Assembly (NCBI GenBank): GCA_037137935.1
Contig: JBAXJI010000003.1
Coordinates: 3,383-67,382 of the forward strand
Reading direction: 5' to 3'
DNA length: 64,000 nt
Origin: Candidatus Saccharimonadota bacterium
GTDB lineage: Bacteria; Patescibacteriota; Saccharimonadia; Saccharimonadales; AQU-01
Position 1 is the stretch's first letter. Each line of letters begins with the position of its first letter. The position numbers were made by a program, and so were the translations under genes. Positions 10,901 to 63,975 of the stretch are shown in pieces. The notes under the pieces were generated by a model. The model saw only the letters and a program-made list of their open reading frames with translations, searched no databases and was not told the origin of the DNA.

Positions 10901-10930
10901 TAGACATAAGCAGTGTTATTCTGGTATAAT
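10901..10930 (+). promoter_or_regulatory. putative ssrA promoter (extended -10)
   Basis: tagaca at 10901-10906, an 18-nt spacer, then TGgTATAAT at 10922-10930. Lies about 30 nt upstream of the mature tmRNA 5' end. Confidence 0.4.
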
Positions 10931-10958: not shown

Positions 10959-11349
10959 GGGGCTGAATTTAAGCTCGACGTCGGTCCTTCTCGGTTAGAT
11001 CAGCAGGTCGCTTGCTTAGCGTTATAGGGCAAAATTGTAATTGCAAACGCTTTTACTCGCGTACGAGATTTTGTAGCTAGTGCTTTTGCACCAAGCGCAA
11101 TGTTCGCCGGCGCAACAGCTTAAGTTACGACTTAATGCCGTGCCACGCAAGACGCCAAATATTGTAATGGTACGCCAAATCATTTGGCCGCTCATTATCG
11201 ATAATCCGTAGATAGTGCTAAGACTTTCGGATTAAACGCTCTGACTTTTTGATTGTTTCTATGTCAGACGTATTCAAACAATCTACACCTGTAGGATAGA
11301 CTAACTGTTAGGCTAACGGACGCGGGGGCGGTACCCGCCAGCTCCTCCA
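10959..11349 (+). ncRNA. ssrA: tmRNA (SsrA), one-piece
   Basis: 5' GGGGCTGAATTTAAGCTCGACG resembles the E. coli 5' end. The 5' GGGGCTG pairs with 3' CAGCTCC, giving the G3:U70 alanine identity pair, followed by T-CCA. A T-arm is present (gcggg/cccgc). The internal tag frame opens with GCAAAC as in E. coli and runs 11043-11120 to TAA at 11121-11123. Confidence 0.85.
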
Positions 11350-11358
11350 TAGTAAGTG

Positions 11359-11382
11359 CCCGACTGCAAAGTCGGGTATTTT
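11359..11382 (+). terminator. rho-independent terminator after ssrA
   Basis: Stem cccgact / agtcggg with loop gcaa, then tattttc. Confidence 0.6.
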
Positions 11383-11420
11383 CTTTGGAGAATTAAACAA
11401 AAAATGACACCTAGAAATAA

Positions 11421-11448
11421 TTGACATAATAAATAATTGTAGTATAAT
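11421..11448 (+). promoter_or_regulatory. near-consensus sigma70-type promoter
   Basis: TTGACA at 11421-11426, a 16-nt spacer, TATAAT at 11443-11448. It sits 3-9 nt before the ATG codons at 11451 and 11457. Confidence 0.45.
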
Positions 11449-11450
11449 AT

Positions 11451-11702
11451 ATGATTATGAGCAATCACCCTAATGGATCTTTTGAGTTCTTTGGAGAAGT
11501 CATAAACCCCGAGTTATATCGTGAGAAAGTCAAAGCACGTGAAGCTGGGATTGCTGAAGATGATGCTAGAGTATTTTCTGGAGACCTAGAGCCTATCGCA
11601 GATATGGATATACTTCATGGAATGATTGATATTGCGCGCTGGTGGTTGGCCAACACGGACTTTGACTCCTTAGAAGAAGTTGAAGAAGACGAAGAAGACT
11701 AA
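11451..11702 (+). CDS. hypothetical small acidic protein
   Basis: 83-aa ORF ending in SLEEVEEDEED. It is the only ORF between the two copies of the ssrA 3' end. I recognise no family. Confidence 0.5.
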   Translation: MIMSNHPNGSFEFFGEVINPELYREKVKAREAGIAEDDARVFSGDLEPIADMDILHGMIDIARWWLANTDFDSLEEVEEDEED

Positions 11703-11745
11703 AACTAAGATTAGAGAACGCCTGGTGGGTAGTCAATAAGAGTTC

Positions 11746-11770
11746 GTACCCGCCAGCTCCTCCATAGTAA
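11746..11770 (+). repeat. exact 25-nt direct repeat of the ssrA 3' end (att-like)
   Basis: gtacccgccagctcctccatagtaa at 11746-11770 is identical to 11331-11355 (T-loop 3' half, acceptor 3' strand, CCA, plus 6 nt). Confidence 0.8.
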
Positions 11771-11773
11771 ACA

Positions 11774-11799
11774 CCTCACTTTAAAAGAGTGGGGTTTTT
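11774..11799 (+). terminator. rho-independent terminator after the duplicated ssrA 3' end
   Basis: Stem cctcact / agtgggg (one G:U pair), loop ttaaaag, then ttttt. Confidence 0.55.
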
Positions 11800-11989
11800 G
11801 CTTTTTATGAGTAGATAAAATCACTACATTTTGATTGATTATGACAGGCGCTGGGGGTGTATTATTTATGAAGTGCTATTGCTATAAAACTAAAACCAAT
11901 TTGCAGGAGGATTTACGAGTAATTTTAATTCTGAAAACCAAATAGGTAATGAAAGAGACGATTCAGTAATAAGTCATAAAGCGGGTTTA

Positions 11990-12295
11990 TTGCGGGATCA
12001 ACTAGAGTCTGAATTAACCAGAGAATATATCGAAATAGATCACGATGGGCGAGCGCGACATTTTGCTCATACCGTGCTGTCAGAACAAATCAACCGCGGC
12101 AAGACTCCAGAAGCAGAAATTAGTAGTATAAAAAGCCTAGCAGGACTAGCGATTGGGCAGGTGGCAGAACATTATAAGCAGCAAGGTTTTATGGTTGGTA
12201 TCCACGCTCGGGAAATGCTTGACTATAGCGATCCTAGCGCAACAAGACGCCCAACAACTGCCGAATATATCCTACGAATTGACCGTTACTTTTAA
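11990..12295 (+). CDS. hypothetical protein
   Basis: 101-aa ORF with a TTG start. The in-frame upstream sequence is open back to 11894 but has no canonical start. I recognise no family. Confidence 0.45.
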   Translation: MRDQLESELTREYIEIDHDGRARHFAHTVLSEQINRGKTPEAEISSIKSLAGLAIGQVAEHYKQQGFMVGIHAREMLDYSDPSATRRPTTAEYILRIDRYF

Positions 12296-12390
12296 ATCCA
12301 AAGACCGACAACTAATTGCAAGAAATAGGCCGTTATAATATGTATAGAGTCTTATGATAAACCTTAAGGTATAATTTATTCATAAAACTT

Positions 12391-14067
12391 ATGACTGCAG
12401 ACAATAACGATCAAGCGCCAAAAAAACCACAGACTTACAAAGAGGTATTAGAATTACAGCCCGACATTCACCCGGATTTAAAAGTACATTTAGATAGACA
12501 AATAAGGAAAGAAACAGCATCACAGGCTGGACAATTAGCGCTAGCTGTTACCAATGGTGTCGTTATAGACAATAACCCTTCGATTGAACCGAAAGGACTA
12601 AGTCATAACACTAGACTAAGAACAATCCTATCTACAGCCTTGACCGTAGACACAATAGATACATATGCCGAAACAGCAATTAGTGATTTAATTAATCTAA
12701 CAGGCAATGTAGTTAATGAATTTGCGGACACATTAAGCCCAGAAGCCGTGTATTCTGACAATAAAAAATTAGAAGACGCAGCCTTTAGCTATTTTGACTT
12801 ACCTAGTATTACAGGAAATCTAGATAATATAGCTAAAATAGATCAAGACATAAAGAACATAGATAGAGTTATAGAAAAAGCAAGCATCAAAGACCAGGTT
12901 ATAGTCCCGCCCGACGCCCCCGTAAGACCTATTGTTCCAGGAAACGGAGAAGGCCTATTAGAAAATAAGCTACGCCCTCGACTAAAAACATTGCTGTTTA
13001 TTCTTGAAAAAGATAATAACATTGATTTAGACGATCTAAAAATAGCTGAAGGTATTACGACTAATGAAATGATGAGAAAAGAGCCGTACTACTCGGTAGA
13101 AGTTCCTAGTCTTAACAGGACAGTACTGGTATGCAACGAAGAAGGTAATGCCACTTTTGTTATAGATACCAAGAAACTAGAAGAGCTAAAAATATCTACA
13201 GAGCAACTATTAGATATGACCAAGGATAAGTTAAATGCATTAATGGCAGAACACGCTGGCTTTGGAAGAAGAATAATACAATCAGATAGCTGGGTAGACA
13301 ATATCGCAGTCAATCTAAACGAAATACAGTTGAGTGCTAATGAACAAGCAAATACTCAGGAAACACCAAGAAGTTACCTTAACGGAACAGAGCGTGACCG
13401 TCAAGGAAATGCCCTGCTGTATTCCGCAGGCGATCTTGGTAATAAAAGCGGCAAAAAAGGAATGTTTGATGTATCCGGTCCGACAATCCAAAAAGCAGCC
13501 AAAGACTTACGAATTGAAGGTCAAGAAGCTAAGTTTGGTACTAGTAAAGGCATTGGCTATGACCCATGGCAGGTGAACGATATTAGAGATGAGCTCTATA
13601 GACAAAATCTTATCGAGAGAAGTCCACCAGACAGGATTTATTCCGCAGGCGATCTTAGTAGTGATAAGGGCAAAAAAGGAATGTTTGATGTAAGCCAAAG
13701 TACAATCCGAAGAATAGTTAAAGACTTAGTAATTGAAGGTCAAGAAGCTTCTTTTGGTAGTAATAAAGGCATTGGCTATGACCCATGGCAGGTGAACGAT
13801 ATTAGAGATGAGCTCTATAGACAAAATCTTATCGAGAGAAGTCCACCAGACAGGATTTATTCCGCAGGCGATCTTAGTAGTGATAACGGCAAAAAAGGAA
13901 TGTTTGATATATCGTATTATACAATCCGAGATATAGCCAAAGACTTAGGAATTGAAGGTCAAGAAGCTATTTTTGGTAGAATAAAAGGCACTGGTTATAA
14001 CCGCGAACAGGTGGACAAGATAAAAGCCGAAGCAATAAGGCGAGGTTTTATTAAAGCAAATGAATAG
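12391..14067 (+). CDS. hypothetical protein with three C-terminal 73-aa HTH-like repeats
   Basis: 558 aa. The N-terminal about 340 aa are unrecognised. The C-terminus holds 3 tandem units: YSAGDL..GKKGMFDVS..TI...KDL.IEGQEA.FG..KGIGYDPWQVNDIRDELYRQNLIERSPPDRI. Confidence 0.7.
   Translation: MTADNNDQAPKKPQTYKEVLELQPDIHPDLKVHLDRQIRKETASQAGQLALAVTNGVVIDNNPSIEPKGLSHNTRLRTILSTALTVDTIDTYAETAISDLINLTGNVVNEFADTLSPEAVYSDNKKLEDAAFSYFDLPSITGNLDNIAKIDQDIKNIDRVIEKASIKDQVIVPPDAPVRPIVPGNGEGLLENKLRPRLKTLLFILEKDNNIDLDDLKIAEGITTNEMMRKEPYYSVEVPSLNRTVLVCNEEGNATFVIDTKKLEELKISTEQLLDMTKDKLNALMAEHAGFGRRIIQSDSWVDNIAVNLNEIQLSANEQANTQETPRSYLNGTERDRQGNALLYSAGDLGNKSGKKGMFDVSGPTIQKAAKDLRIEGQEAKFGTSKGIGYDPWQVNDIRDELYRQNLIERSPPDRIYSAGDLSSDKGKKGMFDVSQSTIRRIVKDLVIEGQEASFGSNKGIGYDPWQVNDIRDELYRQNLIERSPPDRIYSAGDLSSDNGKKGMFDISYYTIRDIAKDLGIEGQEAIFGRIKGTGYNREQVDKIKAEAIRRGFIKANE
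13420..14064 (+). repeat. 219-bp tandem repeat x3 (intragenic)
   Basis: Units start at 13420, 13639 and 13858. About 125 nt are perfectly identical between units 1/2 and 2/3 (13547-13675 vs 13766-13894). Unit 3 diverges at its 3' end. Confidence 0.9.
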
Positions 14068-14237
14068 CTATTAATTCACTGCTTTTTTTACTACTACTTA
14101 TAATAAGTTTATCTCCTCGCTCTTTAATCCTAAAAACTAAATAAGTAGTGCAAGCGATGACGCCATAATAAAACAAAAAGCAGGATTATTGCAGGATCAA
14201 CCCGAATTTAAGTTAAATTATCATATAATTTGATAAG

Positions 14238-60809: not shown

Positions 60810-60893
60810 GCGCGAGTGGTGGAATGGTAGACACGCTTGTCTGAGGGGCAAGTGCCGCAAGGTGTGGAGGTTCAAGTCCTCTCTCGCGCACCA
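60810..60893 (+). tRNA. tRNA-Leu (anticodon GAG), class II, CCA encoded
   Basis: GCGCGAG-TG-GTGG-AATGGTAGA-CACG-CTTGT-CTGAGGG-GCAAG-variable arm-GGAGG-TTCAAGT-CCTCT-CTCGCGC-A-CCA. The acceptor stem is perfect. Confidence 0.9.
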
Positions 60894-60906
60894 TAGTAAT
60901 AGATTA

Positions 60907-60983
60907 GGGCGCTTAGCTCAGTTGGCTAGAGCATCTCGTTTACACCGAGAGGGTCGGGGGTTCGAGTCCCTCAGCGCCCACCA
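60907..60983 (+). tRNA. tRNA-Val (anticodon TAC), CCA encoded
   Basis: GGGCGCT-TA-GCTC-AGTTGGCTA-GAGC-A-TCTCG-TTTACAC-CGAGA-GGGTC-GGGGG-TTCGAGT-CCCTC-AGCGCCC-A-CCA. Confidence 0.92.
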
Positions 60984-60988
60984 AGAAT

Positions 60989-61015
60989 AAAACCGACCCT
61001 AAAGGTCGGTTTTTT
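60989..61015 (+). terminator. rho-independent terminator after tRNA-Val
   Basis: Stem aaaaccgacc / ggtcggtttt, loop ctaaa, with a T-run. Confidence 0.6.
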
Positions 61016-61154: not shown

Positions 61155-61173
61155 GTCCCTCAGCGCCCACCAA
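61155..61173 (+). repeat. exact 19-nt copy of the tRNA-Val 3' end (copy 2)
   Basis: gtccctcagcgcccaccaa is identical to 60966-60984. Weaker similarity extends about 12 nt upstream (ctcgaat vs ttcga). Confidence 0.85.
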
Positions 61174-61214
61174 AGAAAAATGCCAGGCTTTATGTCTGGC
61201 ATTTTTCTTTGGTG
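61168..61214. other. perfect 19-bp-stem hairpin
   Basis: caccaaagaaaaatgccag (61168-61186) and ctggcatttttctttggtg (61196-61214) are exact reverse complements, with a 9-nt loop. The left arm starts inside tRNA-Val 3'-end copy 2. Confidence 0.85.
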
Positions 61215-61357: not shown

Positions 61358-61376
61358 GTCCCACAGCGCAACCAAA
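61358..61376 (+). repeat. degenerate copy of the tRNA-Val 3' end (copy 3)
   Basis: gtcccacagcgcaaccaaa vs gtccctcagcgcccaccaa, about 16 of 19 with one indel. Followed by the hairpin aaataccagac / gtcaggtattt (61380-61406), which overlaps the stop codon of the minus-strand gene. Confidence 0.6.
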
Positions 61377-61396
61377 TAAAAATACCAGACAATTTG

Positions 61397-63121
61397 TCAG
61401 GTATTTAACTTTTTATACAATACTAGACTGACGGAAGTATTGACTTTAAATTTCTGAATTTCTTGAAGATGGTAGTCTGATGCAGCGGTTTCTCTCATTC
61501 TGAAAAAGGACAGTATATAGTTTATTTTTTCAGGTTCTAACGATAATACACATTTAGTATTATGCAGACCGGCGTTATGCAGCTCTGTGTTGACTACATC
61601 AATAACATAATCATTTATTACAGTATTATTAGTAATCACGCAAAAGATATCTTTATTCTCGTAAGTACTTTGGTTATTTTTGAAGAATTTCACTAAATCA
61701 GGAATAAATTCGAAAGTTATAAATCCTGGCTTGTTCGATCCGACATACTTAGGCCCAAATTGAGCTCCGTCTGTCTCCCCGTAAGGAAAAATTTTAATAT
61801 ATCTATATTGTTCGAATATTGGAATGAATATCAGAGCGGCTATTAGCAAGTTGCTTGAAAATCTTTTAGATAAAATCTTTTTCTCTGGCCATATATATGC
61901 AAAAGGAATGTATAGAAATGGGAAGATCATCAAGGCATACCAAGTCAATAACCACTCAGAAAATGTAAAAATAATTAACTGAATAATCGCAACTATAATT
62001 AGGAGCAAGTAGTCATTAATTAGGGCTTTTAACCTACCAGTCTTGTAAAGTTTTAGGAGTGCAATAGCAAGCAGTGCTCCTGCAAATAAGCCAAATTTTA
62101 CTGCAATTATTATGTATATATCCTTATATGAGTGTATTAAGCCTGTAGATTGGCTGCTCCAAGATTGTAGCCAGTCCCGTATTTCGAATATGTTATTAAT
62201 ATTGAAATATATTGGCGAGAATATGATTGTAGTCACAAGAGCGGTTGTAGTTAATAGAATCCATTTTTCTATAAAATTCTTAGCAGTTTCTTTGCTGTTT
62301 TCATGCAAGTACATATATATACCGGCAATCAAGTATAGAATAGACGCTCCTACCATAAGATAAAATTTAAGCACTGATGGCAGAGGAGCTATGTTAACTT
62401 CTATCCATATTAATAAGAACGAAAAGTTTAGAGTACCTAGCTTTAGACTGCTTCTACTTGAGGATAGCTTCGTGTTGATTATTTCTGCGCGAGTAGCTTT
62501 ATTTTTGTAGTGCATCCAGAGGTCATATATAAATACAGAAACAAGAATTGTGAGTCCAAATAGCTTGGCAGCTATTGAAAGCCCTATAACTATTCCTAAG
62601 ACTGCAGTATTTTTTATACTTAATTTATTGGATATTTTTGCATGGTTTTTGAGGTATAGATATAAAGCTAATGTAGAAAAGAGGATGTACGTATTGTCTG
62701 AACTAGACATATTGAGAATGGAGAAGCTAAAAAGATAGCAGCTAAGACTGGCTAACACCGTGCCATACATTGAACGACTAAATGATAACTTTAATCTTAA
62801 AAGCCTGAAGAATACAAATAAATATATCGAGTTTATTACAATAGACAGTATTCTTGTTGCGAATAGAGCGTTCGTTTTAAAAAGTAAAATAATTGGAATA
62901 CAAATAAGTTGTGAAAAGTGTGATTGGGCAGGACTGTCTGCATGGCTGAAGAAATTCCTGTAGCTAGAAAGATCTAGTTTAATTGTATTGATATCACCTA
63001 GCTCATCTCCTAAATAAGGCAGTTTGTGGGCTGCGTAAATCTTCAGTATTAGAATGTAGGCAGATAGTAGGAGTATTCCATATTTTGCCAGTTTATGTTT
63101 GTTTTGTTTTAGGAAGTGCAT
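61397..63121 (-). CDS. polytopic membrane protein, GT-C glycosyltransferase-like (family 39 / ArnT-PMT type)
   Basis: More than 10 hydrophobic helices. An acidic first-loop motif (AAHKLPYLGDELGD) is typical of ArnT/PMT-type enzymes. Markedly AT-rich codon usage. The track ORF extends to 63229, but ATG 63121 (MHFLKQNKHK) avoids overlap with the divergent gene. Confidence 0.55.
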   Translation of the reverse strand: MHFLKQNKHKLAKYGILLLSAYILILKIYAAHKLPYLGDELGDINTIKLDLSSYRNFFSHADSPAQSHFSQLICIPIILLFKTNALFATRILSIVINSIYLFVFFRLLRLKLSFSRSMYGTVLASLSCYLFSFSILNMSSSDNTYILFSTLALYLYLKNHAKISNKLSIKNTAVLGIVIGLSIAAKLFGLTILVSVFIYDLWMHYKNKATRAEIINTKLSSSRSSLKLGTLNFSFLLIWIEVNIAPLPSVLKFYLMVGASILYLIAGIYMYLHENSKETAKNFIEKWILLTTTALVTTIIFSPIYFNINNIFEIRDWLQSWSSQSTGLIHSYKDIYIIIAVKFGLFAGALLAIALLKLYKTGRLKALINDYLLLIIVAIIQLIIFTFSEWLLTWYALMIFPFLYIPFAYIWPEKKILSKRFSSNLLIAALIFIPIFEQYRYIKIFPYGETDGAQFGPKYVGSNKPGFITFEFIPDLVKFFKNNQSTYENKDIFCVITNNTVINDYVIDVVNTELHNAGLHNTKCVLSLEPEKINYILSFFRMRETAASDYHLQEIQKFKVNTSVSLVLYKKLNT

Positions 63122-63210
63122 AATATGAATATAACATAAGTAGCGAATCATTATTCTGCATATACTTAATTGTTGTAACGAGTATAATGAGCTTATAAAT
63201 AAGGAGCAAT

Positions 63211-63975
63211 ATGGGTACATTAATAACAATTTTGGTGGTTGGATTATTTATTATTCTAGTAAATGGTGTGAGGATTATTAACCAATACGAGCGTGGTGTT
63301 GTTTTTCGCCTTGGTAAGGTACTTCCTAATATCAAACAGCCCGGCCTAAGATTAATTATTCCTATTATCGACCAGATGCGTAAAGTTCCGCTACGTACAA
63401 TTACGCTACCTATCGAGACACAAAAAATTATCACCAAAGACAATGTTTCGATAGATGTTTCGGCTGTTGCTTACTATCAAGTGGCAGATCCTATTAAATC
63501 AATTGTTGAGATCGAGAATGTTGTTTCGGCGACTTATCAGATTGCCCAGACTACCGTGCGTAATGTTGTTGGCCAGTCAACTATGGACAATGTATTGAGC
63601 GAAACTACAGAATTGAACGAAAAAGTTAAGTCTATTTTGGATATAGCTACCGAAAAATGGGGTATATATGTCAGTAATGTTGAGCTAAAGGACATTCAGT
63701 TGCCTGAAAGCATGCAACGAGCTATGGCCAAACAAGCTGAAGCCGAGCGCGAAAAGCGTGCCAAAATTATTGCTGCTGAAGGTGAAGCTCTTAGTGCCGC
63801 TAAGTTAGGTGAAGCCGCCGACATCATTAACGCTCATCCGATTGCGCTACAGCTACGAAACTTACAGGTGTTAAGCGAAATAGCAGTCGAAAAGAACTCG
63901 ACCATCATTTTCCCAAGTCAATTCATGGACACAGTCTCAAGCGTCAAAGACTTCATGGCCAAAGAGACTAAGTAA
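63211..63975 (+). CDS. SPFH/Band 7 (stomatin-like) protein
   Basis: N-terminal TM helix. Motifs [32 protein letters not shown], and the coiled-coil [23 protein letters not shown]. Confidence 0.9.

Follow-up and report, generated by a model that had tools for sequence, protein, structure and literature searches.

A 415-bp single-gene unit between copies of the tmRNA gene 3' end, present in some strains and precisely absent from others of a Candidatus Saccharimonadota species

We report a 415-bp unit carrying one small gene (orf83) at the 3' end of the transfer-messenger RNA (tmRNA) gene ssrA of a lake Candidatus Saccharimonadota bacterium (GenBank assembly GCA_037137935.1). The stretch analyzed, here called the window, is 64,000 nt long (contig JBAXJI010000003.1, positions 3,383 to 67,382, forward strand). 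Two copies of the ssrA 3' end bound the unit, and strains of one species carry either both of its junctions (attL and attR, filled) or the uninterrupted site (attB, empty), in near-isogenic backgrounds. We read it, at a probability of roughly 0.6, as a discrete, minimal, non-autonomous single-gene cassette that sits in the ssrA 3' end and would be moved in trans.

The full-length tmRNA gene was identified with the covariance model RF00023 (10959-11349, + strand; 57.1 bits; gathering score, 47; model positions 1-374); an ARAGORN run for tmRNA over the window did not call it, probably on account of the non-canonical T-loop GGCGGTA. The Rfam alignment resolves the T-arm as GCGGG-GGCGGTA-CCCGC, after which come the acceptor strand CAGCTCC, the discriminator U, and CCA. 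The 25-mer GTACCCGCCAGCTCCTCCATAGTAA spans T-loop bases 5-7, the 3' strands of the T-stem and acceptor, UCCA, and TAGTAA, and so ends 6 nt past the CCA of the tmRNA. It occurs exactly twice in the window, on the same strand and offset by 415 nt; a search allowing up to 3 mismatches gave no further match in the window, where none is expected by chance. The main features are as follows.

10959-11349, + strand: ssrA, the integration target (RF00023), 100% identical across all filled and empty strains.
11331-11355, + strand: core copy 1 (attL core), exact 25-mer, with the B-O-P' junction in every filled strain.
11356-11745, + strand: cassette-specific DNA (390 bp), which with one core makes the 415-bp unit absent from empty strains.
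11746-11770, + strand: core copy 2 (attR core), exact 25-mer, with the P-O-B' junction; putative displaced native 3' end fragment.
11773-11805, + strand: native ssrA terminator (consensus terminator scan), directly 3' of ssrA in empty strains.

A first-pass annotation, made from the letters of the window and a list of its open reading frames (ORFs), had described an exact 25-nt duplication of the ssrA 3' end that starts inside the T-loop and covers the acceptor 3' strand, CCA, and 6 nt beyond. It placed a stem-loop and T-run after each copy and, between the copies, an integrase-less insert of about 390 bp with an acidic 83-aa ORF behind a near-consensus promoter. This description held throughout. 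The two copies lie 390 bp apart, and the Rfam alignment gives the same register. Both terminators fold (copy 1, -28.8 kcal/mol, z -8.6; copy 2, -17.0 kcal/mol, z -4.3, and flagged by the consensus scan), the promoter matches consensus at 12/12 positions, the predicted protein has an isoelectric point of 4.05, and an integrase was found neither in the insert nor in the 64-kb window.

It is hardly credible that no insertion took place, the repeat being a diverged local tandem duplication of the ssrA 3' end with its downstream sequence, or a chance match. Terminators of similar design follow both copies, and those after successive units at a tRNA-Val gene (below) are homologous, as duplication would predict, but a 25-mer match is far beyond chance and clean empty sites occur in near-isogenic strains. 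Simple tandem duplication was rejected because the flanks 3' of the two copies are unrelated past the core (8 of the next 15 nt match) and the interior holds a selected, foreign gene with a homolog elsewhere.

Additional strains were retrieved from ENA, NCBI, and Logan assemblies by protein-anchored look-ups with variants of the downstream core gene orf214, and junctions were typed by exact flanks (filled, B-O-P' plus P-O-B'; empty, B-O-B'). Filled sites were found in 10 distinct contigs (L001-L009 and L101; L091 repeats the L003 contig). In the GTDB genome L056 (CALRGT010000006.1), ssrA, CCA, and TAGTAA run directly into the copy-2 terminator; in a three-way alignment, this genome matches the left flank of copy 1 up to the core and the right flank of copy 2 after it, which makes the site an exact attB. 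Empty sites (L056/L098, L099, L100, L102, and L105-L111) amount to an attB count of L056 plus nine further contigs of the same species. Filled L101 and empty L100 are 99.86 to 99.89% identical over 10.2 kb with a sole gap of 415 bp, and filled L002 is 99.90 to 99.96% identical to L100 over about 8.5 kb; two empty strains, L100 and L102, show similar divergence from each other (99.82% identity over 10.6 kb). Flanks among filled strains are 91 to 100% identical, the filled state being present in diverse strains, and an index of public assemblies lists the identical orf83 protein in 58 blocks, invariably in the ssrA context. JGI metagenome contigs gave 0 matches to the window tmRNA with any non-orf83 downstream sequence, and hence no empty site.

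The first-pass annotation had taken copy 2 and its terminator for the displaced native end, had proposed to look in relatives for ssrA followed at once by that terminator, and had named uniformity among all relatives as the outcome that would speak against an insertion. Such sites exist in same-species contigs, and near-isogenic strains differ by exactly 415 bp, which supports the interpretation that an insertion displaced the native end. Copy 2 carries a C-to-T change in L001 and L005 and copy 1 is invariant with the entire tmRNA, which fits copy 2 as a non-functional, displaced fragment. Since empty L100 and L102 are nested within one filled sub-lineage, a recent precise loss of the cassette is the most economical reading of these two strains; their empty state could also stem from allele exchange by homologous recombination.

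A second indel lies nearby. A 2.4-kb module (11833-14227), missing from the L056, L099, and L105-L111 lineages independently of the cassette, encodes orf101 (11990-12295) and a variable 558-aa protein (12391-14067) with three C-terminal repeats of about 75 aa; its junctions have only the short motif TTTGAT in common, with no tRNA-type repeat. Cassette and module combine in three haplotypes, and orf83 present with the module absent was not seen.

The cassette reads, in order, core, strong terminator, consensus promoter, ORF, short arm, core. Its parts, and the promoter of ssrA, are listed here.

10901-10930, + strand: ssrA promoter (TAGACA-18-TATAAT plus TG extension), 11/12 in the consensus scan, 100% conserved in all strains.
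11345-11390, + strand: cassette-supplied tmRNA terminator, with the hairpin core at 11359-11376 and a T-run after it.
11421-11448, + strand: cassette promoter (TTGACA-16-TATAAT), scored by consensus scan.
11451-11702, + strand: orf83, 83 aa, acidic, with an alternative start at 11457.
11703-11745, + strand: cassette right arm, left of copy 2, containing CTGGTGGGTA (11722-11731), the inverted complement of TACCCGCCAG in the core.

In the extended stem of the copy-1 terminator, the CUCCA at the end of the tmRNA pairs with a UGGAG farther downstream. The first ATGs of orf83 lie 3 and 9 nt past the -10 hexamer with no apparent Shine-Dalgarno sequence, and the mRNA is therefore probably leaderless or nearly so. 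The predicted protein contains 23 aspartate plus glutamate and 6 lysine plus arginine residues. In L101, the sole locus not chosen by protein identity, orf83 differs by 5 synonymous versus 1 non-synonymous changes (ratio of non-synonymous to synonymous rates, about 0.05); judged from these substitutions, the gene is under purifying selection. The 95-nt segment from terminator to promoter shows 0 or 1 differences across strains, and the non-coding parts are more conserved than synonymous sites. No family match to orf83 was found in Pfam, PHROGs, PADLOC, NCBIfam, or PDB sequences, and the AlphaFold models are weak (predicted local distance difference test scores of 60 and 66), with a beta-hairpin and two helices. 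An anti-defence or DNA-mimic role for the acidic protein is speculation.

Residues of about 15 to 70 of orf83 weakly match a unit that recurs 5 to 8 times within each of two very large proteins, P0003 (4006 aa, E 2.8e-8) and P0005 (973 aa, E 8e-4); the match could reflect a shared small domain or a compositional artefact. The terminators after tRNA and tmRNA genes and core copies (11345-11390, 61168-61214, and L095:294-340) are alike in having an A-tract, hairpin, and T-tract. In their extended stems, the NCCA end of the gene pairs with a TGG(N) farther 3' (CACCAAAGAAAAATGCCAG with CTGGCATTTTTCTTTGGTG is one example), which may bear on 3'-end processing.

The right arm ends in the 11 nt AATAAGAGTTC, identical at 9/11 positions to the equivalent arm of L028, AATATTAGTTC. 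With copy 2, it can form a CTGGTGGGTA-N15-TACCCGCCAG hairpin (-16.5 kcal/mol, z -2.7), for which an unbiased inverted-repeat search against shuffles gave a P value of 0.24. An attC-like palindrome at the end of each unit, formed with its own core, is a weak lead at most: the shuffle test was not generally significant, and most other units have no such repeat.

For comparisons of ssrA across species, species-representative genomes were scanned with a probe in which the T-stem, acceptor strand, and U discriminator were kept constant and the T-loop was free to vary. This returned at least 80 loci, 69 of them tmRNA-type and nearly all labelled Saccharibacteria or Saccharimonadales. The first-pass annotation had remarked that the bases gagttcgta before copy 2 come closer to a canonical T-loop than those of the functional gene. 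They do precede copy 2, but they are cassette DNA missing from empty sites and not the native loop; the remark fails because the loop GGCRGTA is normal for the clade (GGCAGTA or GGCGGTA in 58 of the 69 tmRNA-type loci among the matches listed).

As a group, Saccharibacteria tmRNAs (the window and L010-L089) have the T-loop GGCRGUA instead of UUCRANY, with a U discriminator. The tag reading frame of the window tmRNA looks unusually long, at about 26 codons (ANAFTRVRDFVASAFAPSAMFAGATA). CCA-TAGTAA is common to the tmRNA (11347-11355) and tRNA-Leu(gag) (60890-60899), TAGTAA being the extension of the repeat past the mature 3' end.

An exhaustive HMMER search returned one real relative of orf83, P0002 (78 aa; 50% identity; E 1.6e-11), which shares its acidic tail, and a profile search for more relatives added nothing. 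The P0002 gene lies on a 1.6-kb contig (L095) after tRNA-Thr and tRNA-Tyr (214-299). There, the tRNA-Tyr 3' end AATCCTACTCCCAGCACCAAA occurs three times (at 281, 466, and 848; spacings, 185 and 382 nt), the last copy being degraded. Copies 1 and 2 enclose a 185-nt unit without an ORF; copies 2 and 3 enclose a 382-bp cassette with a hairpin, TATAAT, and, 7 nt later, the ATG of the P0002 gene, a promoter-to-start arrangement like that of orf83. The repeat starts at the last three T-loop bases, a register within one base of the fifth T-loop position, and runs to CCA. Two different tRNA-type genes thus each have this small cargo beside them in one and the same miniature layout, with the 3' end of the respective gene as its boundary.

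This homolog bears on a serious, though on balance unlikely, alternative: that the insert is the decayed stump of a larger ssrA island or prophage, immobile after deletion of its integrase and most of its cargo, with empty sites either ancestral or made by deletion between the repeats. The first-pass annotation had left stump and minimal cassette side by side. The minimal cassette is favoured over a random stump because the homolog sits in a cassette of the same size and layout at tRNA-Tyr; a stump would need two independent decays to one design (415 bp at ssrA, 382 bp at tRNA-Tyr) with homologous cargo, and the non-coding parts of a stump would not be expected to be more conserved than synonymous sites. 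The evidence, including the recurring miniature units described next, leans toward the minimal cassette and does not settle the matter.

Among the 66 listed ssrA loci with enough downstream sequence, each from one species, 7 have a unit without an ORF followed by a second core copy (19 nt, T-loop base 5 to CCA).

L012:4231-4413: ssrA unit without an ORF.
L037:6639-6815: ssrA unit without an ORF.
L034:1155-1340: ssrA unit without an ORF.
L021:2968-3143: ssrA unit without an ORF.
L028:1517-1696: ssrA unit without an ORF.
L055:1634-1814: ssrA unit without an ORF; second core copy decayed.
L052:7269-7559: ssrA unit without an ORF; second core copy decayed.

The units measure 176 to 186 nt in L012, L021, L028, L034, L037, and L055 and 291 nt in L052, and in five species other than that of the window the ssrA repeat stops exactly at the mature CCA end. 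All of these units have a terminator, a hairpin of the form CCC-GNRA-GGG, and a second hairpin of 8 bp, 4 pairs of which are preserved by compensatory changes, and also contain an inverted T-arm copy that tracks the T-loop variant of each host; Rfam at a permissive threshold gave no family. Carriers are scattered (for 5 of the 7, the nearest tmRNA relative has no unit), and the L012 and L037 units are 81% identical where their tmRNAs are 66% identical, which together favours horizontal movement of these units. A single ancient, inherited insertion is disfavoured by the patchy distribution. Genes for small GIY-YIG nucleases (PF01541) form cassettes on ssrA cores in three species: L012 (358 bp, between core copies 2 and 3), L028 (after copy 2), and L064 (directly after ssrA). 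The left junction CCA|TTCT(T/A)C is common to these cassettes, and that of L028 is bracketed by a 15-nt repeat, GGGAAAATATTAGTT, not by a second core. Core-bounded units are thus as small and stereotyped elsewhere (mostly 176 to 203 nt, one of 291 nt, plus the 358-bp cassette), and hairpins kept by compensatory changes with a patchy distribution are unlike debris; both points count against a stump.

Within the window itself, tRNA-Val(tac) (60907-60983) is followed by two units without an ORF, u1 and u2 (189 and 203 nt). Copies of the tRNA-Val 3' end lie at 60966-60991, 61155-61180, and, degraded, 61358-61383, each with its own terminator. Strains of the species differ by entire units: the window and L114 carry both, L116-L118 and L123 carry u1 only, and L119, L120, L122, and L124 carry u2 only. 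The outer core copy is intact in the u2-only strains and decayed in the window. As the terminators after successive cores are homologous and that of L123 looks like a hybrid of two, loss of tRNA-Val units may proceed by ordinary homologous recombination. Adjoining the array is an ORF of 574 to 610 aa (61397-63229, - strand) with no family match; the L116-L118 lineage lacks this ORF, and there a Band_7 gene comes directly after the array.

These repeats also bear on a further possibility, namely that the core is copied from the target, either as a target-site duplication from a 19- to 25-nt staggered cut (in the T-loop and a little 3' of CCA, by a casposase/Cas1-like enzyme or another transposase) or as an RNA-templated copy of the 3'-terminal 18 to 19 nt of a mature tRNA or tmRNA. 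Any tRNA-shaped gene could then serve without the element matching its target. We consider this improbable. Homologous cargo does occur at two unrelated targets with repeats identical to the local gene, the structural register is shared by ssrA, tRNA-Val, and tRNA-Tyr (T-loop position 58 or 59 to at or near CCA), and the ssrA repeat ends at the mature CCA in the five species named above. Yet the window repeat extends 6 nt past the mature 3' end, repeat length varies at one target (19 versus 25 nt), and homology between tRNA-Val units runs into the terminators, which points to DNA-level att-type homology. By our own reading of the sequences, the units have no terminal inverted repeats, and no transposase, Cas1, reverse transcriptase, or Resolvase domain was found by Pfam among 38 ORFs of the window.

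Searches for a mobilizing enzyme, a free form, and a donor were negative, and together with three properties of the data they weigh against a mobile cassette and in part toward a stump. No recombinase was found in the insert or elsewhere in the 64-kb window, of which 38 ORFs fall by Pfam into housekeeping families or have no match. A tblastn search of the window for tyrosine recombinases with a XerD-type probe and catalytic-motif regular expressions found nothing, and the 398-aa ORF next to tRNA-Leu matched no family. The attP junction expected of an excised form, AATAAGAGTTC-GTACCCGCCAGCTCCTCCATAGTAA-GTGCCCGACTGC (right arm, core, left arm), had 0 matches in JGI metagenome contigs, and IMG/VR yielded no donor phage or plasmid. 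Every polymorphism seen is explicable by deletion between direct repeats, so that losses alone could suffice. The orf83 family comprises two lineages only, and "same cassette, two targets" rests on a single comparison; the exchange of a tRNA-Tyr core for a tmRNA core by a cassette is unexplained. Degenerating island remnants with leftover partial tRNAs are, moreover, well known (bioRxiv 10.1101/2020.12.28.424599; PMC3146451).

One recombinase lies beside ssrA among the fetched Saccharibacteria loci. In L010 (2104-3656), a 508-aa protein that begins with a Resolvase domain is encoded convergently with ssrA, in a frame that ends at the tmRNA CCA; full-size ssrA elements may therefore exist in the phylum, a point in favour of a stump. 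The window holds no homolog by tblastn, and ssrA-adjacent ORFs in 15 other species are, L010 excepted, transporters, regulators, or core genes. No autonomous partner element that uses this att site turned up in the window, in the 66 Saccharibacteria ssrA loci, in IMG/VR, or in JGI contigs. Three IMG/VR matches were set aside: that to the ssrA core (L090) falls by chance within coding sequence, and those to the tRNA-Val core (L112 and L113) belong to unrelated phages, whose att sites are GC-rich partial tRNAs. The tRNA-Tyr core and a GTT-variant ssrA core had no matches in IMG/VR.

The insertion mechanism that we propose for the favoured mobile cassette is inferred, as regards both the enzyme and the source of the core (the element itself or the target). 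A free form, circular or other, carrying the 25-bp core would recombine with ssrA somewhere inside the core, through a recombinase supplied either by another part of the genome or by a helper element. The tmRNA would stay intact and gain the cassette terminator, and the displaced native terminator would end the orf83 transcript. Loss could occur through the same enzyme or just by recombination of the two 25-bp repeats with each other.

That elements integrate into tRNA and tmRNA genes is textbook knowledge. Like the islands and prophages found there (Williams 2002; Islander/TIGER, PMC4383910), the locus has an intact gene and a displaced 3' fragment in direct orientation, a supplied replacement end and terminator, an empty site in relatives, and an identity block that starts in the T-loop or T-stem, a recognised sublocation; unlike them, the cassette is 415 bp long with one small gene and no integrase. 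Islander drops candidates without an integrase ORF or below 2 kb (PMC4383910), filters that exclude this size class by design. Of the features it looks for, the locus shows an intact ssrA with a same-orientation 3' fragment downstream and an uninterrupted site in relatives; the insert, whose sole ORF is orf83, has no integrase gene, and its length is 415 bp versus at least 2 kb.

The ssrA islands of Dehalococcoides have a 20-bp repeat that starts mid-T-loop and form tandem arrays in which newer units adjoin the gene (McMurdie et al. 2011, PMC3146451). They are multi-gene, and in many a six-gene integration module places the serine recombinase DsiB next to attL, on the reverse strand; integrase-less tandem members were interpreted as cis-mobilizable (PMC3146451). 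The cassette likewise targets ssrA with a repeat that starts within the T-loop (base 5), but has no large DsiB/CcrB-like serine recombinase next to attL. The L010 serine recombinase, convergent with ssrA, resembles the Dehalococcoides arrangement.

The cis-mobilizable elements (CIMEs) of streptococcal integrative and conjugative elements are flanked by attL and attR, lack recombination and transfer genes, and are expected to move with a recombinase from another element; they are kb-scale derivatives of identified conjugative elements, and their accretion mechanism has been demonstrated. The cassette is alike in that it lacks a recombinase and is flanked left and right by intact 25-bp cores, and its att sites are taken to be functional because of the precise presence/absence polymorphism. 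It differs in that units here are 0.2 to 0.4 kb, with no cognate autonomous element found in the loci and collections searched. Integron cassettes are mostly promoterless and have an adjacent intI integrase gene and attI. They resemble the present units in working, as single-gene, recombinase-less units arrayed at a fixed attachment point with unit-by-unit strain variation. Here, however, neither IntI nor attI was found, an attC-like palindrome lacks statistical support, promoter and terminator come with the cassette itself, and the boundary repeat is 19 to 25 nt of a tRNA or tmRNA gene versus a 7-nt core. The cassette thus works like a CIME or an integron cassette and by defining features is a member of neither.

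Tycheposons of Prochlorococcus integrate at tRNA and tmRNA genes, push older elements outward to leave partial tRNAs, and are polymorphic in populations; they are many kb long, with tyrosine recombinases and replication or packaging modules, and the partial tRNAs are treated as remnants and not as units (bioRxiv 10.1101/2020.12.28.424599). Streamlined host genomes and stacking at tRNA and tmRNA genes are common to both systems. What sets the present case apart is scale and autonomy: units of 0.2 to 0.4 kb, with one gene or none and no integrase. To our knowledge, the tRNA and tmRNA elements catalogued so far are kb-scale and carry their own integrase.

A wider proposal is tentative and, taken with all its parts, doubtful: that Saccharibacteria carry an undescribed class of miniature non-autonomous elements whose att site is the T-loop-to-CCA segment of tRNA and tmRNA genes. 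It would span single-gene cassettes of about 0.4 kb (the orf83 family and GIY-YIG) and structured units of about 180 to 200 nt without an ORF, in small arrays whose content differs by single units inside a population and that give a gene flux like that of miniature inverted-repeat transposable elements or integrons in ultra-small genomes. Targets would possibly be recognized by structure or base-pairing, with no dedicated element-encoded integrase.

The locus is a clean population-level case of a 415-bp, one-gene, att-bounded unit, with attL, attR, and attB in near-isogenic strains, and miniature units recur at three different tRNA and tmRNA genes in Saccharibacteria. If the cassette is indeed mobilized in trans, its recombinase could be a compact, programmable-looking tool for tRNA-shaped sites, and such units would offer a cheap route of gene gain and loss to episymbionts whose genomes measure about 1 Mb and hold very few classical mobile elements. 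Even if the units are remnants, the 3' ends of tRNA and tmRNA genes in these bacteria accumulate and lose small modules at the strain level.

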